Positions 1 to 63,785 are shown, counted from the first letter of the whole stretch. The stretch: DNA of 63,785 nucleotides, filler included, from Bonamia ostreae (GCA_040357525.1; 13 parts of 13 records of this genome joined end to end with filler, not necessarily neighbours in it); one strand, 5' to 3'. A program made the numbers and translations. The notes: generated by a model not told the origin, from the letters alone.

Positions 1-2038
1 TTTTATCTCTAAATCGCACGAATGCGATGGTAGCGAAAATCATTGCCACTTTATTTATCTTTTAAAACAAATTGATGTGTAAATGGAAAAATTTTTCTTA
101 AGGAAATCTACAACGTCAATATTTTCCGAAATATTTTTAGTCACTTCTTCATAAGCCATTTTGGTCCTATATTTTATCAAGCGCAAATTTACTTTAAACA
201 ATTCTTAATTGCAAAAAACTAAGAAGGTTTAGATTTGCAATAAATCCAAAAATCGATAAATTTTTGGAAAATAAGCCTCACTTCGTTATAAAAATCGATT
301 TTTACATATTTTTACGATAAAAAACTGAAAATTTTCCATTATTTTGAAAAAAATAGTTATTACAAAAGTTCAAATCTCTCAAAAATTTTGTGTAAAGAAT
401 TTACTCGTCACTGTTCGAACCAGTATTTGCTTTTTTCTCGTTTTTCCAACGAAAAACATTCTTTCAGCTCTTCACAATTAATTTTCGGTTCACTGAAAAT
501 AAAATTATTTGCAATTATTTTGTCATTTGATAAAATTTTACAAAAATCATCGCCCATTTCTTTGGCCGCGGCACCAACAATTTTTTCGTGCAATCTCTGC
601 AAAATCTTATGTTTGAATAAGAATCGAAACCGGGTTAAAACCAATTTTCACTTCACTTTTTATTTCACAACTATCCACAAATTCTTCCATTTTCAATAAC
701 TGTTCTTTTGTGACACTTTCAAATTTCTGGTCTCTCTTTGTCACCAATCTTTTATAAAATTTTAATCTAAAACTTGATATCTTCTCTGAACGGCAATTCG
801 TTCCAGACGAAATATCTTTCATTTCCGTTGATCCCCGGTGACAAGTATCCATACAATGGCATCGCTTTGTTCTGTTTGATGAGTCTTTCAGTTTAAATGA
901 TCGTTGCAACCTGACAATAGCGACCGAGTTAGTTTTGCGGCAAGCGCTCACAAATGCCGCCAGAAGCAAAACAGATCTCTCGTTTTCCGGTTGGGCGCAG
1001 ACATAATCAGAAGTGGACATTCTAAGGGGCAGCAAATCGATTCGGTCTCTTTTGACAAATCCCAAGAGACAAAATGATTTTTCCGTCTTCGATTCAAGTC
1101 CCTCTTCGTCAAAGACGGTAAAAGGGACGATGTCCTTTCCGAAAGAAAATGCTTTTATTTTGTCTTTGACAAAATAAGGCGAGTCGGGAGAGTCGTTTTT
1201 GATGACATTGTCTTCATCGAACAGACCGTAATAACGGGAAATGGTTTTTATCGCAGATTTGGTGTCGGCTCTTCGCCTTTTCGCGGGAGGCGCTCTTTCC
1301 ACCTTCGTTTTGCTGTAACAACATACTGAGATTTTTAAGGCGTTGCCGATGTTTAGGAAGCCTTTATATTTCGGTACCTTCAAAATTAGGTTTTTGGAAA
1401 ACCTTTTTTACAAAAATGGTTAAAATAATGGAATATTGTTCTTGAAATAAAAACGTGTTTAATCGATCGTTTCCGTTCGTTTTTAGCTTTGAAAATGGCG
1501 TCCCGAAACGTCGAAACTGATATGAATTTGTTTGCGATCGAATTGTAGAAATCGTTAAATTTTTGCGACAGCAATATAAACTCGACAAAGATTTTGTTTT
1601 CCGACAATGTATCGTTAATGTCAGAATTTCCAAAGTTTTCGTTGATTTTGCAGTTTGTTATGAAATGAATTTTAATGGTGTATTTTCTCTTCTTTATAAC
1701 GTTCTGAATTTCTTCAATTAAGTTTTTAAGAATATCAGTTTTTTGGGACTTCGACAAATCAGTTTTTAATTTTATTTCTTTAATTTTCTTTTTGTTTTTG
1801 TTTGGAAAATGGGAACTTTGAGGTCTTCTAGATCAAACTGTTGTTTCAATGGCGAGATATCAGTTAGTTCTCCTGAACTGCTGACGCCATAGATTCCGAA
1901 CATGTCCGTCTTCTTGTAAAATAAGAGTTTATTCATCGCATAGTTGGCTATATAATTTCGAGCTTTATCTAAAAGTCCGAAATCGTCGTTATTTGATAAT
2001 TCGTCGATAACTAAGACATCCGCAATTTTGTTGGTCAT
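1..2038 (-). CDS. KU80: Ku80 (vWA domain + Ku core), multi-exon, 3' end runs off the window
   Basis: N-terminal vWA-like VLVIDE...KLLFYKKTDMFGI; core YKGFLNIGNALKISVCCYSKT, KAFSFGKDIVPF, FCLLGFV, LAAFVSACRKTNSVAIVR; the 5' ORFs join through GT-AG introns. Confidence 0.85.
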
Positions 2039-2199
2039 TTATTGCGAATTTTAATAATATAAAAAGTTTAAAAATTTGGGATTTAAAGTTTGCCCAATTA
2101 ATTATCTTTTTTGCTTCCAATTTTTTTAACATCACAAAAAATTATGAATAAAAGACTTTTGTGTTTTCTTCATATCGATTTGTCAAAAACTGAGTTTTA

Positions 2200-2400
2200 A
2201 AAATAACAATTTTTTTAAAGACTTCAATAAAAACGACCTCGAAAAAATAAAAAAAAAGTAAAAAAAAATTATCATCCAAAATAACAAAAAAAATAAAAAA
2301 ATGACTTCGAAAAAATAAAAAAATGTCTTCCAAAACAACAAAAAAAAATAAAAAAAATGACTTCGAAATAAACAAAAAAATGTCTTCCAAAACAAAGATT
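2200..2400. repeat. A-rich degenerate tandem repeat (aaaaaaatgacttcgaaa / aaaaatgtcttccaaaacaa units)
   Basis: Repeated units visible directly. Confidence 0.7.
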
Positions 2401-2772
2401 ATAAATATCTTCACCGGAAAGTTGCATTTTTATCATCCAATTTTTGTTAAAATAAATTGTTTGAACAGCGTTTGGCGATTTAAATTCATGAAAAAATGGT
2501 TTGCAAGGACGTCCACAAAAGACAAGAACACGTTCAATAAAGAACGGAAGAAATTATCAACTATGAAAAATGGTTTGCTTTAAATAGCCACGGTGCTCAA
2601 CCAGAGCCAAATTTAACAAGCTACAAAAATTTTGCTTTAACATACCCATTTTTACATTGTGCAATGTATAACCAAATCAACAAAATTCCAAGTTTAATAT
2701 TGTATTGCGTAAATAAATAGATATTTAAAGCTTTAGCAATTTGACTAAATCAGGCACCTTTAACCTCAAAAG

Positions 2773-3246
2773 ATGAACCAATCCGACGTACAAAGTTTTT
2801 AACGTAACCGGAAAGACTTGGCGAAAAATTTTCTCTCGAGTTTCTACGGAAAGTACGAAGAAGACCGCACCAGCTTGGACCAATTCTTCGTAACTTTTCA
2901 AAATTTTAGTCAAACCAGTCAATGGCGAGCATAGAAGGCACCCACGCGATGGGCAAAGCGAACATTAAAAACGCTTTCATCGTTTTGCTCACATTCCAAA
3001 CAAATTATATTAAAATCTCTAATATCGAAGAACCAAATAAAAGCGAACAAAATCCGACATCAAGTGACGACGTTCGATGCTCATCCTTTGCCAGATGGAG
3101 CCGTTTTTATAATGGTCACCGGGAAACTGAGGATCGACAACGACGCGAACGCTGTCAATTATTCGGAATCGTTTCTGCTCAAAAAAGATCCGAGCATCGG
3201 GAATTACTACATTCACAGCAATATTTTCAGGATAAATTATGGATGA
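2773..3246 (+). CDS. NTF2: Nuclear transport factor 2; introns 2795-2815 (21 nt), 2890-2909 (20 nt), 2982-3030 (49 nt)
   Basis: Spliced product MNQSDVQNLAKNFLSSFYGKYEEDRTSLDQFF...TTFDAHP...IMVTGKLRID...YYIHSNIFRINYG, with the typical NTF2 C-terminus. Confidence 0.9.
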
Positions 3247-3472
3247 AAATAAATAACAAAATTGTCCATTTTCAAAAACAATAAATGACGACAAATCTCT
3301 TTTATAAATTATGTTGAATAAATCTCTTTCGCAAAAAGATCGATTTTTATAAAATGTCATTTGTTATCAAAATAAACGGGATTTTATAACATTTAATCTC
3401 TCACCATTTTAAACTTTATATGACAAAACAATAAGCAAATTAAGTTTTTCGGCGATTAGACGAATTAGCAAA

Positions 3473-4836
3473 ATGGCGTCGATAATTCCAAAATTGCCGT
3501 CAAATGTACAAAAGCTGCTTGGAATCGGCGGAGACAGCGACGACGAAAAAAAAGTTTTAAAACCGAATTTAGATCATTTCGAAAACAGAAGATTTGGTAG
3601 ACGAACTTAATCGATGCGAGTTAATGGTAGACCTCTACAAAAACCAGATCTACAAAAAATCCGACATTATTCAGGATAGAAAATCCGAAACTGTCGAAAA
3701 ACCGAGTAAATTTCATATTTTGTAAAGACGAAAAAACCGATTTCGATTTTGATAATTTCGGCGAAGACGAAAACGAAGAAAATGAAAATTTATTCGAATA
3801 CGATCAAATCCCCCAAAACTCACCAAAACTTTTCATTTCCGACGAAAACGTGGAAATGCAAATTTCAAAAGAAAAAGTCGAAAAAGCGTTGGAGTCGGTC
3901 AGGAAAAGTCTCTTCGGTTTGTCAAAATTTTCTGACAAATTTCCGTCTTTAGACAAAACCAAAAATTTGCAGAAACGTTTCGCTAAAATTTTAAACTCTT
4001 TAAATGACGAGAAAACGATTAAAAGCGATCTTATAAGTCCCATTAAAAACGGTTCGGACATTAAAAACTTTGAGCTCAAAACAGATAATGGGCAAAATGT
4101 TAAAGCGTTTTTAAGAGAAGTTTTTGATATCGAAGACGAAATCGATATCAAAAACGACCATTTTGTCAAAAATGACAAAACTGATTTTGACAAAGAATTG
4201 GAGAAGTCCGAAGTAGAATATAATGGGGAAAATGTTAAAAAGAAAGAAAAAGTGTCTGAAATTGACGTGAACAAGATTTTTGGGCCACCAAAAGAAAAAA
4301 CATCCGTCATTAAAAAACGGAGCTTTAAAGACGATTTTGTTGAGAAAAAGCGGTCTGAAATTTCCGAAGACTTAAATGACATGGCAGTTACTCTTAAAGA
4401 CACAGCCGTTAACTTTGGTCAAACAATTCTCGGAGATTTAACTGTTTTAATTTCTTGACTTATTTTCAGCTTAAACTTTACTATTATTGTTAACGGTTTT
4501 GCATAAATAACATTTAATGGCGTCGACTTAAAATCTGTTTTTTACAACTTTAAAGAACTTTAATAAACTGCTAAAAGCTCTAAATATCTATCGTTAATTT
4601 TAATAAATGTCCTAATTCTAAAAATGTCATTTGTAAAGAAACTTGAATCGATTGATAATATGTTTTCAGAGAACAAGGACAAAGTCGGCAACATGACCAA
4701 AGAATTACAGAAGGAACAAAGAATCGGAGGATACGCAGAATCGATTTTTTCTTATGCCATTTTGGTTATTGTTTTTGTGCTGACCTATTTTGTTATCAAA
4801 ACTTTTCCGACGGAAAAGAAACTAAACTTTACTTAG
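3473..4836 (+). CDS. USE1: USE1-like ER Qc-SNARE, multi-exon
   Basis: SNARE-like helix EISEDLNDMAVTLKDTAVNFGQTI...IDNMFSENKDKV and a C-terminal TM ending IKTFP. Confidence 0.65.
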
Positions 4837-4957
4837 CAATTTTATTAAATTTAAAAANNNNNNNNNNNNNNNNNNNNNNNNNNNNNNNNNNNNNNNNNNN
4901 NTTAATTAATTAANNNNNNNNNNNNNNNNNNNNNNNNNNNNNNNNNNNNNNNNNNNN

Positions 4958-5418
4958 GGTTTATGTTGTTGAGGCATTTGATTTACTGAAGGTTGAAATT
5001 GATTGTTCGCAATTCCACGATAGCGACCCTTTTCCGTCAAATTTTCTTTAAATTTATTTTGAACATTTTCCGATAAAAATCGTTCTTCGTTTTTATTCAA
5101 TTCGGAAATGCGTTCATTATTCCGCATTTCGTTCATTCCTTTTGTAGATGGAATTTGAGTACCGTGTACAACATGCGATTGTTGCTTTGGTCGGTTTTCG
5201 GATTCAAGTGGAAATCTGTGTTGGTTTGGATGTGCGAGACTAAAACGATTTTCGTGCATTTGCCAATCTTGTCGGTTGTCGTTTAGAGGTTTGGAGCCCC
5301 TTTGATCGTACTGTTCTGGAATTCTATTAGAGTCTTTATTTTCTTCGAAATATCCGTCTGATTCAAACGAATCACTGTCAGGATTGTAAAACTTCAACTG
5401 TTCATCATCGGAACTCAT
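4958..5418 (-). CDS. Hypothetical protein, low-complexity N/Q-rich N-terminus (partial)
   Basis: Open ORF from ATG 5418 into the spacer; no recognisable domain. Confidence 0.55.
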
Positions 5419-5594
5419 TATATGTTTAATTGTTAATATTTTAACACTTTAATGTCTAACCATTTTCTTTATAAATGCATTAAAGTTTCAATCCCAATAA
5501 ATCAATAATGTTACAATGAGAAAAATAAAAAAATACATTTTAAACATGCTTTCAATAGCTACATTAAAATTAGATTCATTTTAGCATTGAGTAT

Positions 5595-5745
5595 TTATTT
5601 AATGGAGAGATATAGATATAATTAAAGGCCATCAGCGGATATTTGTTTAATGGACAGATCTAGATATAATTAAAGACCATCGGATATTTGTTTAATGGAG
5701 AGATTTACATATAATGACATTTGATAGTAATGACATTTGAGCGAT
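5595..5745. repeat. Degenerate ~45-49 bp tandem repeat (tttaatggaNagat...gatataattaaag...) downstream of RPS15
   Basis: About 2.5 copies visible. Confidence 0.7.
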
Positions 5746-5749
5746 ATTT

Positions 5750-6207
5750 TTATTTTAAGGGCACAAATCTAGAAGTCTTGCTCACGTTGGATTTGTTGTG
5801 CGCGACCATGTTATAAGTTAACGCGAACTCTCCTGTATAATGACCGATCATGTTCTGCCGGATTTCGAACTCTTTGAACTCCTTTCCGGTGTAGACAGCG
5901 ACGCGGGAGCTGATCATGTCGGGCGTGATCATGACGTTGCGCAAATGCGTTTTAACTGTTTTGATTTTGTTGTCTGTTCTCTTGGCCGCTGCGTGTTTTG
6001 CCTTCAAAAGCTTCTTCCGAAAAATGATTTCTCTGTTCTTCTTTCCTCTCTTAATTTTTCTTCGCATCCTGGCTGGAAGGAGCTCTTTAAACTCTTCTTT
6101 GGATGCGTCGATCAATTCAAGGATATCGACGCCGCGGTAGTAATATTTTCTGAAGCGCTTCCTCTCTGTTTTCTGTTTCATTATTTCAATAAAACCTGTG
6201 AAGACAT
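5750..6207 (-). CDS. RPS15: 40S ribosomal protein S15 (uS19); 23-nt intron 6173-6195
   Basis: FRKYYYRGVD, VKTHLRNVMITPDMI, MIGHYTGEFALTY, SRFVPLK; first exon ATG TCT TCA CAG. Confidence 0.96.
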
Positions 6208-6402
6208 AACCCTTCGATATTAATTAGCTTTATATAATTTAGCTTTTCAATTTTTATATGTAAGTTGTTTAATTTTTGTGTTTATAAAATAAATGTGAAG
6301 AATCAAACTATATCCGATAAATAAAAACATTAAAAATCTCATTGAATTGCAATTTTTTTATAGAATTGTTATAAAATTTAATTTGGCGAACAAATTAGTC
6401 GA

Positions 6403-7312
6403 TTAACTCAAATCACCCAAAACTCTTTTCGCTTCGTCTATCAAAACGATCGCCGATTTTACATCATCCAATCGCAATGCCTTTACGCTCTCATTTAGCA
6501 ATTCTTCGCCCTTCAAAATAGTGTTCATTCGCTGTCTCTTATTCTGTCCTTTATTTATCATATCTCCTATTTGTGTTTGTTTTCGCGGTTCTTTTTCATC
6601 AATATTGAACTGAAAATTTTCACTCAAATCATTTTCATTATTTTTCTTCGAAATTTGATTTGGTAGATTTTGCATAGTCTCATCGCTTTCATTATTTTCG
6701 TTTTGCCGGCTGTTCTCACTGAGTTTCAAATTTTCAATTGGAAGATGTTCTATTTTCTTAGTCAATTGAACGCATTTGAATTTGCAGAATTTTATCCTTT
6801 CTACTAGTTTTCGGTCGTCTATACGTTTTATCGAATTAACCTTCTCCGTCCATTTGTTTCAAGTTCCTCAATGTTTCCAGGATCAGTGAAGCGCTATAGA
6901 ATAGTTTCACAGTGTTTCTACAGATTGCTTTATAAACTTTGACAATTGGTCATTTTTTTCCTGTACGAACGCGTTTTCTATTTGAAGAATCGCGATTTTG
7001 GACATCTTTTGATAAATCAAATAGGAACAAAGTTTTATCGTTTAAATCAAACCTTTTCTTTGGCTTCTTCTTTTTTGCCTTTGTAGTCATTACTTTCCTT
7101 TTTTTGAAAATATAATCGGTTAAAACATTTTCGAGATATTGCAGATTTTTTACGATCAAGTTTTTCAAAATTGGTGGTTTCTCCTCAATGGTCATCGCTT
7201 GTTTGACTGCAGTCAATCTCATGTAATACGAGATTAGCGGTTCAGTTTGGCGTAGAGCATCTGACTTTGAAAAAAACTTTTGAACGCTTTTTACTGTTTT
7301 GCTTTTGTCCAT
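6403..7312 (-). CDS. VTA1: VTA1/LIP5 (ESCRT/Vps4 cofactor), multi-exon
   Basis: MIT-like N-terminus EPLISYYMRLTAVKQAM and VSL-like C-terminus SVKALRLDDVKSAIVLIDEA. Confidence 0.8.
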
Positions 7313-8028
7313 TTTTATGTCTTTCAATATATTTTATCAAATGATTAATAATTGCAAACTATCTATTTTTCGAAAACTATTTTTCTATTTTTCGAAAAAT
7401 TTTTAAAAAAATTTTCAATGTTTTTAGCCTTAAAAAAATTAATACTTTAAAAGCAATTTTTAAGTTTCGATCAAAAGAGTGCAAGATTTACAAATTTAAA
7501 TTCTATATATTTTTTAAATTTTTGTATAAACGCAAAGGACAAACATGTTAATTTGAAATATATTTAAAACATTGAACAATAAAATGATCAATATTTTCTT
7601 AAAAATTATTTGCGGCTGTTTAAGTCTTAATTATTTTATTATTTTTTTATTTAAAATGGGTTTAAATAAAAAGGACAGTTCTTCAATTTGTAAAAATAAA
7701 GAAACAATTGTAATAAATATATTTAAAAAGAATTTTATTAAAAATAAAAAATTGCAATTAGAAATGTTAATTAATATAAAAATTATTCCCTGGAATCACT
7801 ATTTTGGCATGAATAGGGAAAGGCTTCAAAAATAAGATTTTTCATTTAATGCATTAACTGTACTATTAATTGTTCTATTAAAATTAAAAAAGATGAAGGG
7901 ACCTGGTATACAAAACGAAAAAAATTACTCTAAATTTTGTAATATAAATTCTAAATTTTCTTAAATTATTTATGAAAATAAAACAGTTATTTTTAAGAAA
8001 ATTTTCGTTTTTAAACGAACAAAGTGAT

Positions 8029-9233
8029 TTAATCAGAAAAGTCAAAAATGTAAAGACCATTTTTGGTTAAAATTTTGTTGCCTTTCGAAATACCCGGTTT
8101 CGAACTGCTCGAATCGTCTGAACTGGATGAATATTCGTTTTGCCCAAACGATCTTTTTCCAACAGACAAAACCGCCAAGTTTTCAGACAATTTATTTAAA
8201 TCAATATCGTTAACGAATTCAAACGGCGTTCTAAAACATTTTTCGGGTTCTAAATCGTCTTATAAAACTAAAACTTGGGCATACTTCGGCTGCATAAAGA
8301 TCAAATTTTCTGATAATTCCATCGGCCGAAGAGGTAAAGAGATATTTGCCATCTGTGCTTTTGCAGAACCCCATTCGCTGATTTCCGATCGTGTGAACAG
8401 GGCGTTCGAACCAAGCCACTGGCTTCGCTGCAAACCTGCAGTCCCACATTAAAATTTCGCTTTGCTTTCTTGCCGATGACAACAGATAAGAGAAATCGTC
8501 CGTCATATCGACTTTCCAGATCCCGTTTCTGTTCGTGTCCCAATCAAAGTCGATCGTTGCCTTCCCGCTTTTTTCGTCGAAAATAAATGTTTTGCCTTTG
8601 TAGTCCCCCACAGCCCAAATTTTCCCTGAAGCATCCGCTGCCGCAATCGTCGAGATAGCGTTTTTTGCCAGCTGTATAAAAGAAAAATTTTTGCTAAAAT
8701 ATAACTTTTCCGTTTTGCGAAGGCAACTTTAATTTAATCGCTTTGTTTCCCGGTTCTGAAACCGAAAACTTGCTCATAAAGCCGCGATGGCCGCAGACGA
8801 ATTGGTCTCCAGCGGGAGAAAATCCAATCGAAAAGGCGGTTGCCGTTTCTTCGTTGGCATCAAATGTACTATCATTGAGTTTTACGAACCAATACGACGA
8901 TATTAGTTTCCCATTGAACGCGTCGAAGGCGTGGATCGGGCGCCCTCTCGAACACGAAAACAAAAGACAGGTTTCTGGATGCCTCGAACTCATCGCGGGA
9001 GACCAAGCCATATCGTATACCGAACCTTGTTCCGGCATTGTCAAAACTGGTTTTAAATCATTCGTGTTGTGCTCCTTTTTTCCCAGAAGCAGCGATTGGG
9101 GAGTTTCAAATACAAAAAGCTTTTTCTCTTCACTGAAAGTGGAAAAACAGAGTCCGTCCGGTGACCAGCAGCTGCGTTGTGGAAAGTTTGCTTTAAATTG
9201 ATCTTCTGATCTGCATTTGGGTGGCAGAGCCAT
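8029..9233 (-). CDS. WRAP53: WRAP53/TCAB1 WD40 protein (telomerase Cajal body protein)
   Basis: CWSPDGLC, VYDMAWSPAMSSRHPETC, RGRPIHAFDAFNGKLISSY, AFSIGFSPAG, TIGNQRMGF motifs. Confidence 0.85.
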
Positions 9234-10109
9234 TATACAGTTTTTCTATAAACAAAATTTCTTTAAACATTATTCAAAGATAAACAAAGAGTTATTTTGA
9301 AATTGAAAAACATTTATGGAAACTAACGTTGATTTATTTTTAATTTTACTTTAAATTTATTTCAGTATGTTGGAGTTGGTTTTTCGTACATTTTTAAATT
9401 CCAAGTTTTAAAGAATTCTGTAATTTTGTTTAATTCTTGAATTGTTTAATATTTTTAAATTTTTATAAAAAAAATAGATCTTTGTTTTTGTTTGCCATTG
9501 TTTAAAAATAATTTTATATTTTCTTAATATTATTTTTTCGTTTAAGTATAATAATTATTATAATTTTATTAAAAGAATTTCAAAGATCATCCATATTTCC
9601 GAAACTTTTAATGATGGATTAATTTTTAAATTAAAAATTATTCTCAAACTAAAATTGATTTTGCTTAATCAGTTTTTAGTAATTTTTAAATTATTTAAAT
9701 TACATTTGTTTATTTTGTTTTATTCTTTTTGAAAATTTTCTAGAATAAATAGAATAATGTTTATGTTTATTTTTGTTTTAAAATAAATTTTGTATTTTCT
9801 TAATTTTATTNNNNNNNNNNNNNNNNNNNNNNNNNNNNNNNNNNNNNNNNNNNNTTAATTAATTAANNNNNNNNNNNNNNNNNNNNNNNNNNNNNNNNNN
9901 NNNNNNNNNNTTCCTTTTAACACATAAATTTATTTCAGCCAAATTTTGCATTTAAAAATTTTACGCAATTAATTACTTAAGATGAATAAAATCTTTAAAG
10001 TACATTATTTTTTGATATTACAATATTTTTTCTATAATTCCATTTTAAAATTTTAATTTCTATTATCATTTTTGGTCATTTTGTTAAATTTATTAAAAAG
10101 AGCAAATTA

Positions 10110-10624
10110 TCAATTTAATAAAACGCGCGTTTCGTTTTCAATCTAAAATTCAAAAAATTAACTTGGCCGCTTTCTTCTGAAATCGTACTTAAACGTCGAT
10201 GAATGTTTTGTGGTTCAATTATATTTTTCCTTCTCTGAAAACATTTTGAACAAGAACACTTATCCAATGCACCAATAATAATAATTATAACAACAACAAT
10301 CATGAAAAAGGATATGAAAATAGCGAAATAGTTTAATTTGCAAACATAAAAATCAATCGAATTTAAGTCATCCACTTTTTTATAAACTCGGTCGCAAAAA
10401 AATTTTACTTTAACCTTTAATGGTTGTTTTTTGTTTTTAAAATACAGCTTCAATAGTGATTTACATGAAATTTCGAAAGTGAGATATTTATCAGAAACAT
10501 CGGTCACGTTATGTATCAACAATCCTGTTTTCTCTGGCAATTCACACGTGTTTTTGTGTGCTATGGCCAAAATAGACATGTTTGCAAAACACAAAAAATA
10601 TTTCATCATTTTAAATATTATCAT
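10110..10624 (-). CDS. Small type I membrane protein: signal peptide, 4-Cys ectodomain, TM, short tail; 20-nt intron near the 3' end
   Basis: Hydrophobic N-terminus, Cys spacing resembling a sushi/CCP domain, TM YFAIFISFFMIVVVIIIIIGAL. Confidence 0.65.
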
Positions 10625-11020
10625 TTTAGTATTTTGAAATTATAAAACTGTTCAATTTTCATTAAACTGTAATTTTAAAAATTCAAAAAAAACTAAACCG
10701 CAGTTGAAAGAGAAAATGGACAAATTTAAAAAAATAACTTCGAGACAGCGAAAAATGAATATTTAATTAAAAAAAACAGAAGAAAGAAGAAAAAATAATT
10801 ATTTATCAACAACAAAAGATTATTTTAGACCAAAAAATTTATCAAAAACAAAAGCGACTTTTTAACAATATTTTTAATGCAATTTTTGACTAAACAATTT
10901 ATTCGCAATTTTTGGAAAAAAATGACTAAAAACGAAATCAAAAAATAAATTATAAAAAAAAGAAAAATTACAAAAAAGCTAAATAATAAAGTTTGAAAAT
11001 TTTAGACTTTTACATTAAAA

Positions 11021-11296
11021 ATGGACATAAAATTTTCAGATGACTATTCAAAGAATAAATATTTTCTAATTGAAGTTGAAGAAAATTTTGATTTGAAAAA
11101 TCGAATCGATTTGGTTGAAAACGGCAATTCAGTTTTTCTTAAAAAAGGCGAAAATCTGTTTTTGAAATTTTCTAAAAACAAAATTTTTAGAATTGAAATG
11201 ACAAAACACGAAACTTCAAACGCAAATATGATATTAAAAAACAAAAGCGAGATTGTTGAAATAACAAATTCCTACTTTAGCGCCATTAAACAATAA
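11021..11296 (+). CDS. Short DCC1-like protein (N-terminal part only), probable in-frame 33-nt intron
   Basis: IKFSDDYSKNKYFLIEV...VFLKKGENLIEMTKHETSNANMIL resembles the Dcc1 N-terminus (YKLIQL...VLC...TSN). Confidence 0.4.
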   Translation: MDIKFSDDYSKNKYFLIEVEENFDLKNRIDLVENGNSVFLKKGENLFLKFSKNKIFRIEMTKHETSNANMILKNKSEIVEITNSYFSAIKQ

Positions 11297-11518
11297 ATTC
11301 AAATTTAGCAAATTATAAATTTAGCAATAGACATCGCAAAACATGCACAGAAAATCTAAATTCTAAAACAATAACTACCAAATAAACAAAAACACATCAA
11401 TATACACAAAATCCTTAACTAAAATTTTTTCACAAAGCTTATTAATTTTAACCATAATCAATATAACACAACTACATTTACTTTAAAGTTTTTCAATATA
11501 CTTACACGAGTAGCTTAA

Positions 11519-11969
11519 ATGGTTAATTTGTTTATTTTTTTAGAACGCGGGCATCGAGCTAAGCGAAAAAGCGATGGAAGATTTCAAACAACTTAAAAAG
11601 GCGAAAAATCAACATTTCATGATACTCGAGATCGACTCGAAAAAAGGTCAAATATATTCCAAGCACATGCAAAATAGCACTCAAGAGGAGCCAGAAGATG
11701 CTTTTGAGATTTTTGCTGAATATCTACTCGAAAACTTTGAGAAGAAGCCAGCTTATGTCGTCTTAGACTTCGATTTCGAGAAAAGCGGTGGAAAGAAAAA
11801 TAAACTCATTTTGGTATCTTGGGTTCCAGATGAATCGCCCCCGATGTCAAAAATGGTCTACGCGACAACAGCGACAAGTGCAAAAAATTCTCTTGTCGGA
11901 GTGCACAAATTGGTCCAAGTTAACGACGAAAAGTCGTTGTCGTATAAGAACTTTGTGTCCAAAATGTAG
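11519..11969 (+). CDS. COF1: Cofilin/ADF; ATG-only first coding exon, 22-nt intron 11522-11543
   Basis: MNAGIELSE..., PAYVVLDFDF, KLILVSWVPDESPPMSKMVYAT. Confidence 0.93.
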
Positions 11970-12124
11970 ATGTAGTAAAACGGCTTACGTCTTTTTCTAC
12001 AATTTTTATTTTTTTGTGATTTTTCGGTGAACAAATATTTAAGTTTGGAAATGACGTTTATAAAAGAGATTTGATAATAATTGGATTTTTTGATATAAAA
12101 AATTGTGGCGAGAAGGTTAATTTA

Positions 12125-50793: not shown

Positions 50794-51797
50794 TCACTCC
50801 ACAACCGCGTTCGGGTTGATAACCGGCAGCTCGCCCCCGTAGCAAACGACTGGGTCCATTTCCCCGCGCTTAAAGTACCGCGGAGTGCCGTCCTCGTCGA
50901 AGAACCCCCGCGGCGCCTCGAAACGCTGCTTCGACAGCGCCCCCAGAAACCTCCTCACTTTCCGCTTGCTCAGCGACTTGACCATGTTCGGCGGAAAGCA
51001 GTCTGCGCTCACGCTGTCGAGGCTGCTCTGCTTCATTTTGAGGATCTTGCGGTACTGCGACTCGATCTGCTCGCTCGGCGGCGACTGCACGTTGAAGTCG
51101 GGGCCCATGGCGATTTCCAGCGTGCTCGGCGAGTTCCCGAGGATGCGCGTCATCGGCGAGACCGGGATGCTGTTCGAGCTCGGGGAGACCGGCGACGCCG
51201 TGCCGCGCTGTTCTCCGAAGACGCCCGGCGGCACCTCGATTTCTGCGCGTGAGAAATGTAACTGTTTAGGAACGACTCTTCCGTCGCCGGGGACAGAATG
51301 GGGCTGAAGCTCGACGAGTAGAACATCGGGCTCTGGTTGCCGTAGCGGTTCAGGTAACTGGGGAAAGGGCTGTTCTGCGGCTCTGCGGCGCTCTCCTTCC
51401 GGGCGCCGAGCGTTCTGCCCGCGACGCGGCTGTGCAGCACCTCCCCGCGCAGCGTCTTCGCGCGCAGCGCCATCGCAGCGGCGACGCAGTTCTTCTCGGA
51501 GGCGAAGCGCAGCGTCCAGTTCTGCCCGAATTCGTTGAAGACGGAGAGGACGTCTGTTTTGCAGACCGTGGCTTCGTCGGCACTGTTCTGCGGCGACGGT
51601 TTGTCGGGGAAGAGCGCCAGGATTTCGGCTCGGTTCACGTCTTTGGGCAAGTCGCGCAGAATGAGTGCTGTTCTCTCGCCGGAGCTCAGCTCCTCTGCCG
51701 GTGTGGTCGCGGGGGAACGCGCTGTGAGACTGACCTTCAAATTTTGCAGCTGTTTCTGGATGTCAGATGCATTCTCAAAGTTCTTCGTAGTTGTCAT
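50794..51797 (-). CDS. LARP4-type RRM protein (no La motif seen); 20-nt intron at ~51243-51262; very GC-rich
   Basis: LILRDLP...EILALF...NWTLRFASEKNCVAAAMALRAKTLRGEVLHSRV resembles the LARP4 RRM. Confidence 0.65.
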
Positions 51798-51890
51798 TTT
51801 TGCAGCTTTAGAATTTTAAGAGGTTTAAATATAGAATTCTTTTAGCTTCGGGCTTGAATATATTGTTTATGAATGAGTTTACACTTATGT

Positions 51891-51959
51891 GAAGGGCGTA
51901 GTCGTTCGAGCAAAGAGCGTGCATTGGTGCATGTTTGGGTTCGAATCCCGGTGTCGTCG
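51891..51959 (+). pseudogene. tRNA-like degenerate element (B-box)
   Basis: T-arm GGGTTCGAATCCC and an anticodon-like hairpin CGTGC-ATTGGT-GCATG, but defective acceptor and D arms. Confidence 0.35.
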
Positions 51960-52239
51960 TTCTAAGTCAAAATTGATTCGGCGTTGTACCATTTTTTGTA
52001 AAATTGCGCCGTGGACCGAATTTTTTCAGGATCCCAATTTTTTTAAGACGCCTAAAAACTTCGGGTCAAATGTTGTTTTATAATGCAAAACATCGATGCT
52101 AAGCTTTTTCGTTGCAAAATATGTTCGTTACAATCTATCACTACGTCGTTACAAAAACTCGCTTTGCCAAAAGCGCAAAATTTATTTATCAGTGAAAATG
52201 ACTTGAGCACAAAATTTATTTAACATTTATTTTCAAAAG

Positions 52240-52954
52240 CTATTTTTTGTAAAGTTTGGCCAGCAAAATGTCAGCGACGATGACTAAAACCAAAATGCCG
52301 ATCATTATCCACAACTTCTTGTTCGTCGCCACCGCCAAAAGCATTCCCTTCGTCAGTCTAAAATCGCAGAACAAAACTTTGCAGACCGCTCCAACAGATT
52401 ATCTATTTCGTAAGCTTCGTCTTTCAGTCTTCTGATCTGTTCGGTTTGGCGCTCCAAAGAGCCGGCGATATCAATCGCGGTCTTAGTTCAAGTTGTTTAG
52501 AGAACCTCGTCGGTGCGAACCAAGACTTCTTTCGTGTTCGCAAGAGTTTCCAGCGTCTTGTCTTGCAAGTCGTACGCGTAGTTCGTTACTTGTTCGATTC
52601 CCTCATCTTTCATTTTCGCAAGTTCTACCGTTTTTGTAAAAACTTTGTTCCAATTCTTTGTGGTCTGCTTCGTATCTCGGGATGGTTTTCTGGAATTTGG
52701 CCAATTTCTGAAAATTTTTGTACAAACTTTTTTTGTTTCTTCGTCACCGTCCGATTTCAGTTCTGTTTTGAGGGACAGAGCGTCTTTTTTGGCGTTGCGT
52801 AGTTTTATTTTTATCTTTTTGGAATACTACAATATCAAAACAAAACTGTTAACATGAAATTGAAATCCCTGTTTTCAGAGCTTAAAACATTAAAGCTTTT
52901 TTCGACACTTCGAAGATTTTTCTCGATGTTAGTAACTAGCACTTCGATTTCCAT
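52240..52954 (-). CDS. Qb-type SNARE (VTI1/NPSN-like), multi-exon
   Basis: DIAGSLERQTEQIRRLKDEAYEIDNLLERS, then TNKKLWIMIGILVLVIVADILLAKL tail anchor. Confidence 0.7.
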
Positions 52955-53047
52955 TTTGGTCGCGCTTCCTTTTTAAATGTGTGTGATAAAGAAAATTAAT
53001 TTACTATAAAATAGTTAATTGGGTCGTATATAATATTTAGCATTTTT

Positions 53048-53505
53048 ATGATTCGCTGTTCAAAAGTATTCTTGCGTAATTTTGCATCTAATCACACAAA
53101 AACTATGCGCTCCGTTGCAGACTTTACGCAGTTTTACGACAAAACTGTCTTTATAATACAAGACAAAGTCGATTCGCCAGAATTCGACAGTTACAACATC
53201 GATGTCGATTTGTCAGTTTTAAATTATAAATTGGATAATTTTTTGTCAAAACTGCTTAATTCTCAAAGGGTGGAAATCTTTCCATCGTCATTGATCGCAA
53301 CAAGAACTTTCTGATAAACAAGCAGTTGCCAAAACGCCAATTGTGGTTTTCGTCTCCAGTGAGCGGCGCGCACCACTACGATTTAGACTTGGAAACAAAT
53401 CGCTGGCGATCTGATAGAGATGGCCATTTATTCCAGTCAATGTTGACTTCGGAACTTTCGGACTGTTTTGACGCCGCAGCTTTTGGTTTCAGCGATAAAT
53501 TTTGA
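53048..53505 (+). CDS. FXN: Frataxin
   Basis: Presequence-like N-terminus; FLINKQLPKRQLWFSSPVSGAHHYD...W...DG. Confidence 0.92.
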
Positions 53506-54153
53506 TATTTTTATTTTTTGTGATGGCGAAGAGCTGAAGCTACCTCTAGCTGTCCTATGGACATTCAAGAGCGGGAAGACGAGCAGATCCATCTTGATCC
53601 ATCTTGAGATAGTTTATTCGTGTTTTGAAGATGAATGTGTGTTTGTTGTCTTTATTTGTTATTTTTGGTATGTTCTCTTATTTGGACACTTCTCTTATTT
53701 ATTTGGTATCTATCAAATTTAAACACACGCAGTATCGATCTGAATTCATGACAAAAGAAAAAATCAAATTGTTTGGTATTGACATTTTTTAAACAAAGGT
53801 ATTTATTGTCTCAATACTCTTCGCTTAAATGCGTCGCTCGTCGATCTGCTCCTCGCATCACTGTTCGCTTCGCTTTCACCATGGCTATAGTTAGCATTTG
53901 GCGAGATCCATCATTTTTATTTTGGTGCATATTGTAACCGTTTCCTCACATATCAATGATTTTTTTTTAGTTTTATATATTTGATTTTATTTATTTTTTC
54001 TCTTTTTTATATTATTTTTNNNNNNNNNNNNNNNNNNNNNNNNNNNNNNNNNNNNNNNNNNNNTTAATTAATTAANNNNNNNNNNNNNNNNNNNNNNNNN
54101 NNNNNNNNNNNNNNNNNNNGCGATGACCAAAAATTATTATAAAATTTGAGCAT

Positions 54154-54945
54154 TTACGATTCAATTTGTAGCATTACATTCAATAACAATGTGTTGAAAA
54201 TTGACGATCGCATAAAAGAAACTCGGGTCTGCTCTATAGTAGATTTATCGGAATAATCTTTCAGATTAAGTGTAATCCAAAAATCATTTACCTGGATAGA
54301 TTCTTCATGCAACTTTTTAATAAAATTTCTCATTCCATCTGTAAATTGGTACCGAAAGATAACAAGCATATCTAAAACACCCAAAACTTTTAACAGAAGT
54401 TTATTTTTGTCATCATCAGAACAAAACACTTCCCCTAAAAAAAGAATAAATGCTCTTGAATCTTCAAGAGCATTTGGCACCATTTTATTCTGATCATTAA
54501 ATTCATTACAAAAATCGAAAACGGCATCTTTTCTTGCCAAAATCTCGTTTTTATCTTTTATAATTTGTTTCCAAAACAGTTTAGCCTTAACTTTTGAATC
54601 CCGGTCATACTTATACAATTCTTGCGCGTAACTAATCAGTTTATCCGCATTCTCGTGATCGTAAATGCTTTTTTGAGTCCATAATGTCATAAATGATTTT
54701 CGAGATTTCATCATCTCTATAAAATTTTTAGTTTTTTCGTTGTCAGAAAAAAGCCCAGAAAATTCCTTCTCTTCTTGTTTAGCAATTAAAGTCTTTCTAT
54801 CTTGAAGTAAAGGAATAGTTTCTTTTAATCCTTTATCGTTAAAATCCTCTTCCACAAATATATCTGCTCCTGTTTCTGTTTCGGGAAACGTAAATGCATA
54901 AGATGGCATATTTTCATCTGGTAATGTACTAACTTGTATTCCCAT
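54154..54945 (-). CDS. Intronless hypothetical protein (263 aa)
   Basis: Long clean ORF, no recognisable motif. Confidence 0.65.
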   Translation of the reverse strand: MGIQVSTLPDENMPSYAFTFPETETGADIFVEEDFNDKGLKETIPLLQDRKTLIAKQEEKEFSGLFSDNEKTKNFIEMMKSRKSFMTLWTQKSIYDHENADKLISYAQELYKYDRDSKVKAKLFWKQIIKDKNEILARKDAVFDFCNEFNDQNKMVPNALEDSRAFILFLGEVFCSDDDKNKLLLKVLGVLDMLVIFRYQFTDGMRNFIKKLHEESIQVNDFWITLNLKDYSDKSTIEQTRVSFMRSSIFNTLLLNVMLQIES

Positions 54946-55149
54946 TTTGGTTTGAATATCTATTTATATATAAATTTTCTTAAAGATGTAACAACAGTTG
55001 GTTTAGAAAATTAAAAATGGGAATTATATGCAATTTTTTGTAAAAAATATTTTACAAATGTGATTAAATTTGCACATACTGTGATCTAAAAACAAAAATA
55101 AAATTTAATCGAACAAGGCTTCTTTCAAAAGATTTCTTTTGGATCCTGA

Positions 55150-55590
55150 TGACATACCCCAAAATTAGCGAAATTTTTGTATCCCTCCAGCAATCCGAAA
55201 TTATAATCGATCCTCTTTCTATTCTTCTGCTAACAATATCTCTCAAAACATCTGATGACCGACAGTCGACCTTCTCCACAAAAAACTCTTTTGCTACATT
55301 TGGCTCCTACAATCCATTGAGTTTTTTATACGGTCTTTATTGTATTTACGTCGACTGGTAACCGATTCGTCAATTTCAACGATCCTATTTTCACCTCGAT
55401 TTTATTTTCTTTGTTTTCGTATTTAAATACAACGGTTTCTCTTAAAAATCGGCACCAATCAACAACAGTTTTTTTGTCGATTTCTATGTCTCTTGAAATA
55501 TCCTTCACAGAGCTATTTATGCTCCATTCGTACATCAAAAGTAATATCTTATCCAAGGGTAACTTTGACTTGGAAAATTACTATAATTTA
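55150..55590 (-). mobile_element. Frameshifted Merlin/IS1595 (ISXO2-like DDE) transposase pseudogene
   Basis: SKLPLDKILLLMYEW, KTVVDWCRFLRE, IVEIDESVTSRRKYNKDR, VDCRSSDVLRDIVSRRIERGSIIISDCWR, spread over different frames. Confidence 0.85.
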
Positions 55591-55774
55591 TATAAAAAAT
55601 GGTCATTTTTTGTACTCAGAAGGGTCGGTTTAGTGAGGGGGGGGGGGTGCTATTCTCCACTTTTACCTAAATTTATATATTCATGGATTAAATCCCTAAA
55701 TCTGCAACTCATAAGTCTCGTTATATCCTCAAATATACCAGAAATCGAAATATGTATATACCATAATTCGGAAA

Positions 55775-57548
55775 ATGGAATCTGAGTTCGTAATTTCAAA
55801 CAAAAATTTTAATTCCAAATATCGAATGGAAGAAAATATCGGGTAAAAATAAGACATTTTAAGACAACCTGGCCAGTTCGGGTTCGCCAAAAGATGTGTA
55901 AGTTTAAAAGATGGTACACATTTCGCAGCAAAAGTGATAGATAAGAACAAATTTTCTAATTTGAATAAGAAAAAAATTTTTTTTCAGCAGGTTAAATTTG
56001 CGATTAGATAAAAATTTAATCGAAACGGCAAATCTTCTTAAACGAAGCGTTGCCCACAATAAAACCGAAGAAATTTGTGTCACAATATAAAACAAACTCA
56101 TGTGCTCTTATAATAATAACAAAACGAAATTTAAAGCTGAAAAATGAAATTAACATAATGAAAACTCTCGACCACTCCAACGTAATAAAATATGTTGATT
56201 TCTTCGAAGACGATCATCAACTTTATATAGTAATGGAACTCTGCGAAGGCGGAGAACTTTTTGATCGAATTTTGGCGAAAGGAAGTTACTCAGAAAAAGA
56301 TGCCGCTTTTGTGCTGAAACAAGCCGTCGAAGGCATCAATTATCTTCATAACCAAAAAATTGCCCACTTGGACTTAAAACCGGATAACTTTTTGTTTGTG
56401 AACAAAGACGAAAAGTCGAAGCTCAAAATAATTGACTTCGGGATGTCTTCGGTTGTTGAAAAACACAAATATTTAAAAAAATTGGTGGGCACCCCTTATT
56501 ATGTTGCACCCGAAGTACTTAGAGGGCAGTACACCGAATCTTGCGACATTTGGAGTGTCGGCATCATCATGTTCGTTCTGCTGGTTTTTAAGCGTTAAAT
56601 TTTCATGACAAAAATGTTTATGGAAAGTGCTGAAGCAAAATTTTCCTTAATTGGCTTTTCAAAAGTATGGTTACCCCCCTTTCTACTCCGACCCAAACAA
56701 CCATAACTCGGAACAGAAAATATTCGAACAAATCAAAAAAGGGTTCAATCCTATCGTCAAAGACGATTATGGTCCTTGGTTTCCAAAATCAGTGCACTGC
56801 TCCGATTCTGCCAAAAATCTGATATCAAAGTTGCTAGACAAAGATCCCGTCGTTTATATGTCAATTTTAAAAAGAAAAGAATAACAGCAAAAGAAGCGTT
56901 GGAGCATTCATGGTTCTCGACAGCTGATGACAGAATGGTTGAGAGTTCGGTGGTATCTAAGATAATATCTTTTAGGAACACCTGTAAACTCAAAAATGCC
57001 TTTTTAAATTTCATGGTGAATAGTCTTGATGAAGACGAAATGAAAGACTTGACCGTTTTCTTGAATTTATGCAAAACAGGATGAATTTGAACAAATCGAT
57101 ACTAATAAAAACGGGAGAATAAGTTTCGCAGAGCTCAAAAGTGTTCTCAAAAGAAATAATTGGTTTTCCGATTCTTTTTTAAATTAAACCAATTTCCTAT
57201 TTTGGTAAAGCGAGATCGCAGAAGAAAAGATTTCTGATATAATGAAACACATGGATGAAGACAATGACGGCAGCATAAGTGTCAACGAATGGTGCATGGT
57301 CGCAATGAATAAGCGACTTCTAGAAAAAGAAGAGCGACTGATGCAGTTTTTATCCCAGCACAAAAAGTTTATTCAGAAAAATAGACGAAAACGGCGACGG
57401 AAAGTTGTCTAGAGTCGAACTGGGAAAGGTTCTTTTGCAGCTCAAACCAGATTTTGACATAAGAAAAGCAATTGAAGAGTTTGATTTGGACAAAGACGGT
57501 AACATTGATTATAAAGAATTTTCAGCGATATTCAAAACGATTATATAA
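55775..57548 (+). CDS. CDPK: Calcium-dependent protein kinase (kinase + 4 EF hands); introns include 55843-55863, 56852-56874, 57055-57079
   Basis: IGQPGQFG, HLDLKPDN, DFG, APE; EF hands DTNKNGRI, DEDNDGSI, DENGDGKL, DLDKDGNI. Confidence 0.95.
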
Positions 57549-58500: not shown

Positions 58501-59004
58501 ATCTAAAATTTTTTGTTTATGCAAATTATTTTTAAATATCGAATAATGATCATTTTTGTCTATTAAACGGCAAAAAAATAGGAAAGGATAGTGCCATGCA
58601 ATTTATAATGGGGTTTTCTGTTCGTTATAAACTCTGAGAAAGTTATATCTCTTGAATTAGTGTCCAAAAATAATTTTTTATCAAAATTTCCCATTTTGAA
58701 TTGTTGCGGGTTTTGTTGATAAAGTCAGTTATAATTGTTTTTTTTTCAAAGGAGGGGTGGCTTGCAGAAAATTTTGACGAAAATATTAATACAGAAACAC
58801 GATAATTATTTCCTATAAATTTGAGTTTCATTTTAAATGATTAGATTCAGTTTTAGTCAATTTTTCGACATTTTTGTCTTTTTTCGATATTTTTGTAAAC
58901 TTTTNNNNNNNNNNNNNNNNNNNNNNNNNNNNNNNNNNNNNNNNNNNNTTAATTAATTAANNNNNNNNNNNNNNNNNNNNNNNNNNNNNNNNNNNNNNNN
59001 NNNN

Positions 59005-62000: not shown

Positions 62001-63785
62001 ATCGAAAATTTTGAAGAAATAATTTTTGATAATTTGGCCAAATTTCAAGATAAAAATTTTAATCAGAAAACAACTGTTTTAATGGCGGATTTCATTTTTG
62101 AATTTGCTGAAAAAATTTTTGATGATTTTCGGGATTTTTTGTTACCGATTGGTTATTTTGAAGAAGGTATTTTTATGTTTAATGACAATAAAATAGTAAA
62201 TTTTTGTTCAAAAAATTGTTACAATTTTTAAAGATAATATGCGAAAAAAAATTGAAAGTTTTTTTATTGGCGAAGATATCGATCAAATTCTTTCAAAATT
62301 AAAAAAATACCGAAAATTGATTTCGCTTGGATTGCGGTTTGATCTAAGCACTTTAAATCAGAATTCTAGTGATTTTAGGAATACTAAAAATGTTTATTTT
62401 TAAAATGCAATAACGTTAATTTGTGAAAAATGGATTTTAATTAAATAATCGAAAAAAATGGATTTTAATAAAATAATCGAAAAAAATGGATTTTAATAAA
62501 ATAATTGAAAAAAATGGATTTTAATAAAATAATCGAAAAAAAATGGATTTTAATAAAATAATTGAAAAAAATGGATTTTAATAAAATAATTGAAAAAAAT
62601 GAATTTAAATAATCGAAAAAAATAAAAGATATTTAGAATTTTAGAAACGATTCAAAACAATTCAAATATCGTCGATGAAGGAATTATAAATACGATAAAT
62701 AACAAAATCAGCGGAAAAATTTTAAAAATTGCCTTTTCACAAATTTTGGCAATATTAAAAACAGAAGACAACATTGCTAAAATTTTTAAAAATTTAGTCA
62801 AAAAATTTTGCAGTGAAAATTTTGACTTTTCTGTATTCCCATTATTGTGTCTTCAAGAGAAATATTTTTGCAGTAAAAACGCAGATTCTACGAAAGACTT
62901 TATTTTTTTGGTTTTTCTAAATATAAAAAATAAAAAAGCTAAAAATTAAAAAAAAATTAAAAACTAAAATTTAATAAAAAGCTAAAAAAGACCAATCTGA
63001 AACTAACCGAAAATACTCAAAAAGCCATCACAGAATTTAAAAGAATATCATTTTTGTGGGGAGAAACTTGTGCTGAAAAAATTGAAAATATAAAATCGGC
63101 TTTTCCCGAAGCTTTAAACCATTTTGCGGAAAATTTTGAGACTTTTAAAGATATTCCCAAAACAGACTGTGCGCTTGTTATGTCAAAAGTTTTTGAAACA
63201 ACAAAAATTATTTTAGAACTTAATGATTATCATATAACAACAAAAAGTTTGGAGCTTTTAAAAAGATTGCAACAATAATTCAAAATCTTCGAAAGAACAT
63301 TCGAAATCCAACTACTCCGTACGAAAATCGCTTTTACAGAGAAAATGGCGCTAATTTTGAAAAAGTCTACAAACTTTTTTTACAAATCGGAAAAATAATC
63401 AAACCTGACAAAATCGAGTTTAGAGAACATCTTTTGGAAGATCGCAAAGCGGAAGCCGTTCGGAAAATTGGTTTTGTGAGGAAAGAGATTTTTTCGATTT
63501 TGGATAAAATCTGTTCCAGCTACAAAAACGAACATAAATGGCAATTGCAAGACATTTCGCCATTGTTGACAAAATTGGATTTTGTAGTAGGAGGTTGGTC
63601 GGAAATGAGTGAAAGCGTAAAAGTGGCCAAAATCGATTCAAAAATTTCTTTAATGCGCACAAATCGACCCAAGAAAATTGATTTTATTGATTTTAACGGC
63701 CAAAAATTGCGTTTTTTGTTGAAATCGAAAGAAAATCTTGTCGTTGATGAAACTTTTGTACAAGTTTTTGTTTTTGCAAATCTTT
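59005..63785 (+). CDS. SMG1: SMG1-like PIKK kinase (internal fragment, both ends missing)
   Basis: LETPDCIGGILDW, RQFEEA, LWGE, QLQDISPLL, RTNRPKKIDFIDFNGQKLRFLLKSKENLVVDE (start of the PIKK kinase domain). Confidence 0.65.
62435..62625. repeat. ~29-bp intronic minisatellite (ggattttaataaaataatcgaaaaaaat)
   Basis: About six copies. Confidence 0.9.

Follow-up and report, generated by a model that had tools for sequence, protein, structure and literature searches.

Tiny introns with a 19-nucleotide floor, two donor classes and two candidate U1 RNA genes in the oyster parasite Bonamia ostreae

The stretch of DNA considered here (the window; 63,785 nucleotides, filler included) comes from the genome assembly (G000) of Bonamia ostreae, a haplosporidian oyster parasite (Ascetosporea, Rhizaria), and carries genes for NTF2, RPS15, cofilin/ADF, actin, thioredoxin reductase (TrxR), a small Tim protein (zf-Tim10_DDP) and a calcium-dependent protein kinase (CDPK), most of which appear to be interrupted by very short introns (Table 1). 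The window is made up of 13 stitched contigs of ~4.8 kb joined by spacers of the form N44-TTAATTAATTAA-N44 (n = 12; the first at 4858-4957, the last at 58905-59004), and three further gaps of 100 N lie inside contigs. Since the contigs were joined artificially, gene neighbourhood across the spacers is meaningless.

A reading of the window from its sequence alone (hereafter the sequence-only reading) had proposed that conserved proteins are restored only when GT..AG segments of 19-25 nt are excised. The 13 segments that it listed all run from GT to AG with the positions and lengths it gave, 12 on the plus strand and one, in RPS15, on the minus strand. Excision is required to restore the frame in 12; at the start of RPS15 it is unnecessary, since an in-frame ATG inside the segment (MKQKTERKRF) means that an intron is not forced. 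Eleven of the 13 are well supported, and one, in CDPK (56852-56874), has a rival boundary at 56860-56879 that is favoured by our trained gene model (0.89), although the peptide DPVKRIT obtained with the former boundary fits what we take to be the kinase pattern. The second of our two gene models gave posteriors of at least 0.93 for nine of the 13, and of 0.74, 0.69, 0.10 and 0 for the others. With the four tiny introns nearest its 5' end and one of 154 nt spliced out, TrxR has an open frame without a break at the junctions when compared with seven homologues (picked from 120 fetched), and the peptide PKFPNIPGA, predicted to arise from excision of the 19-nt intron, is obtained and is matched in the homologue alignment; for the first exon, MNTQ, no homology was available for comparison. 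Further along the same gene, excision of 24183-24204 joins two frames gap-free against a homologue (25 aa vs 25 aa, then residue 364). Similarly, splicing of 2795-2815 and 2890-2909 restores NTF2, splicing of 11522-11543 provides the ATG of cofilin, that of 43695-43716 restores the small Tim protein, and that of 55843-55863 and 57055-57079 the CDPK. Pfam domains were matched by 9 of 16 exon pieces, the short pieces mostly giving none. Across the window 66 introns are predicted at a posterior above 0.8, spanning 606..57367, of which 39 measure 19-25 nt. We regard the segments as very probably true U2-type spliceosomal introns of B. ostreae. No peak of AT..AC introns appeared in the decoy comparison described below, and GTAT donors numbered 7 of 794, U11/U12 not having been searched for.

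Table 1. Introns and intron candidates in the window, and the two U1 genes located elsewhere in the assembly (p, gene-model posterior)
Feature	Position	Strand	Length (nt)	Donor	Remarks
NTF2 intron	2795..2815	+	21	GTTT	NTF2 gene 2773-3246; p 0.93
NTF2 intron	2890..2909	+	20	GTAA	p 0.99
NTF2 intron	2982..3030	+	49	GTTT	absent from the sequence-only reading; p 1.0
RPS15 start, GT..AG segment	6173..6195	-	23		possible intron; p 0
Cofilin/ADF intron	11522..11543	+	22	GTTA	directly after ATG; p 0.99
Actin intron	20968..21027	-	60	GTTT	
Actin intron	21152..21365	-	214	GTTT	
Actin first intron	21743..21776	-	34	GTAA	unused in database protein P0104
TrxR intron	22370..22392	+	23	GTTT	if kept, stop at aa 12; p 0.98
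TrxR intron	22611..22635	+	25	GTTT	if kept, stop at aa 109; p 1.0
TrxR intron	22786..22805	+	20	GTTT	if kept, stop at aa 129; p 0.99
TrxR intron	22922..22940	+	19	GTTT	if kept, stop at aa 172; p 0.98
TrxR intron	23013..23166	+	154	GTTA	
TrxR intron	24183..24204	+	22	GTAA	p 0.74
Small Tim (zf-Tim10_DDP) intron	43695..43716	+	22	GTTT	p 0.69
CDPK intron	55843..55863	+	21	GTAA	p 0.98
CDPK intron	56852..56874	+	23	GTTT	p 0.71 blind, 0.10 trained
CDPK intron	57055..57079	+	25	GTTT	p 0.99
Variant U1 (locus L003)	G000:C1288:766-922	-			outside window; Rfam U1 match
Canonical-arm U1 (locus L014)	G000:C414:3712-3826	+			outside window; promoter motif search

Intron lengths were surveyed in a genome sample of 139 pieces (784,709 bases), namely the window and 80 further contigs (C2-C81, at most 10 kb each). 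A self-trained gene model, given only GT, AG, and start and stop codons, was run blind with an intron prior of 1/length over 10-800 nt, which favours shorter introns; in a second, trained pass the model had learned lengths, which it then favours, and the acceptor, while the donor was still blind. Introns are reported at a posterior above 0.8, and the model under-calls stop-free introns whose length is a multiple of three. Open frames were also counted under tables 4, 6 and 10; under table 1 the genes stop at TAA/TGA, and the ciliate code is unnecessary. The blind pass yielded 449 introns, with 7 below 19 nt, 51 at 19, 83 at 20 (the mode), 249 at 19-25 nt and a tail reaching hundreds of bases; the trained pass yielded 798 (median 22 nt), with 4 below 19 nt, 549 at 19-25 nt and 127 above 50 nt. 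By summed posteriors, 766 of 1474 introns measure 19-25 nt, and the share of this size class is half to two thirds. The claim that such introns occur genome-wide therefore holds on the 80 further contigs, but not as the whole picture, since 19-25 nt describes a majority accompanied by a long tail. Indeed, introns of 34-250 nt and more sit in the same genes as the tiny ones, and a uniform micro-intron system, with every intron within 2-4 nt of one length, does not describe a genome in which 127 of 798 exceed 50 nt and TrxR and actin contain introns of 154 and 214 nt.

The lower limit of this distribution is sharp. When the final blind model (469 introns) was compared with nine decoy dinucleotide pairs, GT..AG gave 205 introns at 19-22 nt vs 11-21 for each decoy, and 2 vs 9-21 at 15-18 nt. 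In the blind set, 133 of the 134 introns of 19-20 nt carry an A within positions 12-14 (106 of them at position 13), vs 66 of 134 at positions 8-10; in longer introns a blurred peak of A tracks the 3' end, near -7/-8. Neither a CTRAY branch consensus nor a pyrimidine tract was seen in introns of the 785-kb sample, and the acceptors (n = 439) were AAG in 244 cases, TAG in 128, CAG in 61 and GAG in 6. The positioned A would, on statistical grounds, correspond to a branch-point adenosine, and its placement suggests that the 19-nt floor reflects branch-point geometry. In such a model the branch A could come no nearer to the donor than position 12-14 and would lie ~7-8 nt before the 3' end. A minimal lariat loop of ~13 nt plus ~6 nt to the AG would then set the smallest intron that can be cut (13 + 6 = 19), and longer introns would erode towards that floor.

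The donors fall into two classes. Among the 439 blind-pass introns that remain once those below 19 nt or near piece ends are removed, 371 (85%) begin with GTT, compared with 45% of the GT dinucleotides in that sequence; GTTT accounts for 269 (a threefold enrichment over background), GTTA for 42, GTAA for 38 and GTAT for 6, while GTTTG is found in 32 and G at +5 in 11%. Positions +3 and +4 are strongly coupled in their choice of A or T (odds ratio 40.6 in the blind pass and 70.6 in the second, vs 2.1-5.6 for other adjacent positions). GTAA donors also carry -1G (35/72 vs 146/508 at GTTT donors, p 0.001) and +6T (41/72 vs 176/508, p 0.0004) more commonly, as pairing to a canonical U1 predicts, and they are present in homology-supported introns (those at 2890, 21776, 24183 and 55843). 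They do not derive from a second organism or from particular contigs, as they occur on 51 of 124 pieces vs 51.7 expected and 48 of those 51 also carry GTTT donors; nor do the two classes differ in length, the median being 22 nt in both.

Two candidate genes for U1 small nuclear RNA (snRNA) were found in the assembly, one with a variant 5' arm (L003) and one with a canonical arm (L014). The variant matches Rfam model RF00003 over its full length (47.4 bits, E 1.8e-9), adopts a predicted four-stem fold (z -2.4) and carries the U1-70K loop, a U1A loop with one base changed and an Sm site. Its 5' arm is CAAAACAUC vs the consensus ACUUACCUG; the ACUUAC arm is absent, and the arm reads (C)AAAACAUC, in which AAAAC is complementary to GUUUU. 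The canonical copy (23.5 bits, E 0.016) has the arm AACUUACCUG, of the ACUUAC type, and both this arm and the U1A loop are intact. Aligned on the closing helix, the two arms hold the AC that pairs with the intron GU in the same register, and the bases opposite +3, +4 and +5 are AAA in the variant and UUC in the canonical copy. The two RNAs are identical at 57 of 77 positions over stems I-III, vs 42/76 and 43/77 in comparison with an animal-type U1, and the canonical gene adjoins one for a protist actin-bundling protein, whose 120 listed matches, mostly unnamed, include no animal name. No further copy of either U1 was found in the assembly, each being single. The motif AATCCCATAAATTT occurs at eight places in the genome (its reversed control at none), and five of these precede, together with a TATA-like box, the two U1 genes and those for U3, U4 and U5 (L003, L007, L011, L013, L014), the RNA beginning 58-59 nt on; the other three (L010, L012, L015) precede no known RNA. 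Since U4, U5 and the canonical U1 begin at +58 from the motif and U3 at +59, the variant would start at +58 or +59, which places AAAAC inside the RNA. We considered whether the variant might be U11 and rejected this, as U1 was the best match and the U1-70K and U1A loops are present. The mean duplex energy with GTTT donors is -2.7 kcal/mol for the variant arm vs -1.9 for the canonical arm, and with GTAA donors -0.3 vs -3.7. The sequence-only reading had put forward a reduced or remodelled spliceosome, and the recoded arm of this U1 gene backs one half of that proposal, the remodelling.

The other half, reduction, does not fit the components recovered: two U1 genes, U2, U4, U5, U1C, U1-70K, LUC7, SF1, SNRNP27 and a METTL16-family gene are all present. 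Of the ten protein families searched, six were found (U1C, U1-70K, LUC7, SF1, SNRNP27 and the METTL16 family) and four gave no match in the genome search (three Prp8 domains and SF3b1). U1C looks ordinary, and SNRNP27 retains YRQYMN, the M of which we take to be human Met141. The Rfam search of the assembly returned U4 at 94 bits and U5 at 68 bits. The sole U2 candidate (L002, 368-514, minus strand) scored 21 bits, below the cut-off; its branch-pairing stretch is intact, but preceded by two extra bases, stem I is enlarged, a 3' domain is not evident, and an exact AATCCCATAAATTT promoter motif is lacking. If U2 is remodelled, this could have a bearing on tiny introns. The insertion in this candidate contains a GT..AG of 15 nt, which we considered as an intron and which lies under the 19-nt floor. 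For U5 (L007, G000:C1871, minus strand), the promoter spacing would put the start ~30 nt before the Rfam match, adding a 5' hairpin. The only match to nuclear 18S in the assembly search was a mitochondrial-type rRNA contig, an AT-rich piece (L001, G000:C7503) with small- and large-subunit rRNA of that type. That nuclear 18S, U6, Prp8 and SF3b1 were all missed suggests filtering or gaps in the assembly, not loss, and the last three absences say little because 18S is missing as well.

Based on these observations, we somewhat favour a reading in which a geometric floor on intron length is combined with a U1 that was duplicated and recoded in one copy, in a spliceosome remodelled rather than stripped, with the remodelling located at recognition of the 5' splice site. 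Within it, the recoded U1 probably recognises the GUUU donors, whereas for retention of the canonical U1 to serve the GUAA minority the chances are roughly even at best. The full arrangement, in which two major-spliceosome U1 snRNPs (ribonucleoprotein particles) would work in parallel, canonical for GUAA and recoded for GUUU, as a living intermediate whose 19-20-nt introns are sized by a 13-nt lariat loop, is one that we put forward tentatively, at a little under even chances. The route to a new donor code would then be to duplicate U1 and recode one copy, after which introns could switch class one by one, and the two U1 genes and two donor classes may be a snapshot of a splicing code in the course of changing.

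A number of observations weigh against this reading. The sample was drawn from the largest contigs and covers less than 8% of the assembly. Both U1 genes score under the Rfam gathering cut-off of 69.5 (the recoded arm having lowered the score of the variant), and their start sites were deduced from promoter spacing. The canonical copy ends with its contig after 115 nt, with no Sm site within the fragment; its U1-70K loop is changed, a hairpin has been inserted, and shuffled sequences fold just as well (z +0.95, -0.86). On the side of the donors, +5G, the partner of a canonical U1, is present in just 1 of 72 GTAA donors. The variant arm would further predict -1U, +5U and +6G at GTTT donors, and none is above background: -1T is found in 89 of 508, T follows GTTT in 275 of 508, a frequency not exceeding that of T-runs within introns (p 0.37), and G follows GTTTT in 58/275 vs 117/652 (p 0.27), which leaves +3 and +4 as the positions at which the variant arm and the donors match. 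For the donor set as a whole, mean pairing energy is nearly the same with either arm (-2.3 kcal/mol canonical vs -2.1 variant). As for U6, Rfam gave three matches in the assembly (E 0.2-1.0), none of them pairing properly with U4, and there was no U6 among the 3, 3 and 9 matches to three search patterns. Finally, a search of metagenomes for U1 relatives with an AAAAC arm returned 13 matches, comprising 11 copies of one repeat family, one unrelated sequence and one animal-type U1.

The alternative that survives best, though we think it unlikely, is that the recoded U1 does everything, the canonical-arm gene being a decaying relic and the GTAA donors old sites kept by exon pairing (U5, -1G) or by proteins. 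The altered loop, inserted hairpin, insignificant fold and incompleteness of the canonical gene, and the near absence of +5G from GTAA donors, are as a relic would have them, and the accessible part of PMC11732430 describes two donor classes (U5- and U6-type) in species without two U1s. Against this, the gene, ~74% identical to its paralogue, retains its promoter motif, TATA spacing, intact arm and U1A loop; what was inserted forms a UUCG hairpin of its own, and closure of stems I and II is preserved; and the variant arm barely pairs with GTAA donors (-0.3 kcal/mol), while mixed GTAT donors are rare (7/794).

It is distinctly improbable, in our estimation, that the canonical U1 does the work, with the variant a pseudogene or confined to a side role and the preference for GTT being due to U6, U1C/LUC7, proteins that bind U-rich stretches or a mutational bias. 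Precedent speaks for it, since most lineages with odd donors keep a canonical U1: in the portion of PMC10581693 available, the U1 pairing arm is unchanged in all 236 candidates from yeasts and outgroups, and the accessible text of Roy and Bowser (bioRxiv 10.1101/2022.06.08.495308) has Giardia and Trichomonas retaining it; so too do the missing -1U, +5U and +6G signal and the failure to find U6 in the assembly. The variant is nevertheless full length and structured, with a promoter and an Sm site, its arm is altered exactly opposite +3 and +4 with the AC kept in register, GTTT occurs at three times its background frequency, and U1C looks ordinary. In the yeasts, as far as the same portion of PMC10581693 covers them, +4U coincides with METTL16 or SNRNP27K having been lost and in no case with an altered U1. 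Bonamia differs in keeping a METTL16-family gene and SNRNP27 and in having a changed U1; given that both are present, their loss cannot explain its donors.

That a reduced spliceosome like those of mikrocytids or microsporidia explains the small introns, as the sequence-only reading would have it, is very improbable. The assembly searches recovered no U6, none of three Prp8 domains and no SF3b1, and mRNA-splicing terms are enriched among B. ostreae gene losses (9/328, false discovery rate 0.006) in the part of the supplement of PMC11069148 that we could draw on. Yet ten components were found, including the dispensable LUC7, SF1, SNRNP27 and METTL16 family; Prp8 and U6 are essential and 18S is missing too, a sign that the searchable assembly has gaps; and the numerous introns, of varying length and weakly conserved, do not resemble those of reduced systems. 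Lastly, although the assembly is fragmented, it is scarcely credible that the segments are assembly errors or pseudogene frameshifts, given hundreds of GT..AG cases with a sharp floor at 19 nt, a positioned A and a consensus among donors, features that were not supplied to the model, as well as flat decoy pairs and essential genes restored by splicing.

The actin gene illustrates what short introns mean for annotation. Its last exon is 100% identical to P0104, named Bonamia ostreae actin by NCBI, and the start of P0104 (392 aa) is 16 residues longer than the 376-aa form obtained with the 34-nt first intron (21743-21776, minus strand), which the public model seems to miss. Gene models of Bonamia likely miss other short introns, and reported gene losses may for that reason be overstated. 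Long introns with short tandem repeats lie in actin (21152-21365) and TrxR (23576-24101), the latter with an assembly gap. Two pieces of the window, 39430-44230 and 59005-63785, have no intron at a posterior above 0.8, and the first holds several orphan open reading frames with signal-peptide-like starts. The unnamed environmental proteins P0115, P0118 and P0241, with identities of 91-92% to this actin and of 78% to the actin-bundling protein, indicate that public metagenome sets contain close relatives. A metagenome contig (L064, 58-126, minus strand) carries an animal-type U1 of 96 bits whose arm lacks UU; it is a variant or pseudogene, unrelated to the genes described here.

Introns of ~20-30 nt are known from Paramecium and Babesia microti. 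That tiny introns might already have been reported in related parasites, as the sequence-only reading suspected, is correct: in the text available of PMC10245619, which does not mention Bonamia, the mikrocytid species Mikrocytos mackini and Paramikrocytos canceri have 224 introns, all of 16-17 nt and conserved in sequence, and only U2, U4, U6 and 17-19 proteins were found. Like them, Bonamia belongs to the Ascetosporea, has ultra-short GT-AG introns and can be described by a floor-plus-erosion model; it differs in having hundreds of introns per 0.8 Mb, a floor at 19 nt with a long tail, a retained U1 snRNP and a duplicated U1 RNA. A mikrocytid-type reduction, with no U1 and fewer than 20 proteins, thus does not describe a genome in which two U1 genes, U1C, U1-70K, LUC7, SF1 and SNRNP27 were found. 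The introns of chlorarachniophyte nucleomorphs (18-21 nt) and heterotrich ciliates (15-16 nt), as cited in that text, are similar in size to the Bonamia mode but narrow in range, whereas Bonamia has long introns in the same genes as well as GTTT donors. B. ostreae introns are described as canonical and 2 per mRNA, with no lengths, in what could be consulted of PMC11069148, the accessible part of PMC13746701 leaves Ascetosporea out of its table, and we found no published intron sizes, donors or U1 for Bonamia in a literature search whose coverage mostly excluded subscription journals, where papers on individual Bonamia genes have been published. Bonamia is a new lineage for a known intron size class, with a measurable floor. 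The 19-nt floor and the A at position 13 provide a measured minimum for a spliceosome that keeps its U1 snRNP, between ordinary introns and the 16-17 nt of mikrocytids.

As regards the donor code, the arm with which U1 pairs hardly varies, and compensatory changes in it are confined to Entamoeba, Mastigamoeba and Physarum in the accessible text of Roy and Bowser (bioRxiv 10.1101/2022.06.08.495308). There, Entamoeba has GUUUGU donors with a co-evolved U1 arm ACAAAC and Mastigamoeba has a U1 arm ACGUAC, while Physarum polycephalum is credited, in an unpublished mention, with ACAUAC plus standard variants. Bonamia resembles Entamoeba in having U at +3 and +4 with UU changed to AA in the opposing U1 arm, and, probably, a branch point near -8 (as in E. 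invadens); a majority GUUU donor and a complementary U1 arm are found in both. It departs from a system with a single U1 and a near-invariant GUUUG, having two U1 genes and GTTTG at 32 of 439 donors. Indeed, Entamoeba (Amoebozoa) has one U1, GUUUG in 97-98% of introns, a conserved +5G and few introns, whereas Bonamia, a rhizarian, has a weak consensus, has lost +5G (11%), carries the arm AAAAC, and retains a canonical U1, a second donor class and introns of 19-25 nt. Judged from sequence, the two-U1 system would work like that of Entamoeba while lacking two of its defining features, the single U1 and the strict donor. With Physarum, Bonamia shares the presence of standard and modified U1s in one genome; in Physarum one base is changed for GUAUGU donors, whereas in Bonamia three intron-facing bases and exon-facing ones are changed and the donor classes are separable. 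A genome with both versions of U1 and both classes of donor allows the duplication route to be tested as an answer to the open question of how thousands of donors could change in step with their reader without passing through a lethal state. If our reading is true, Bonamia would be a living intermediate in the rewriting of a near-invariant 5' splice-site code.

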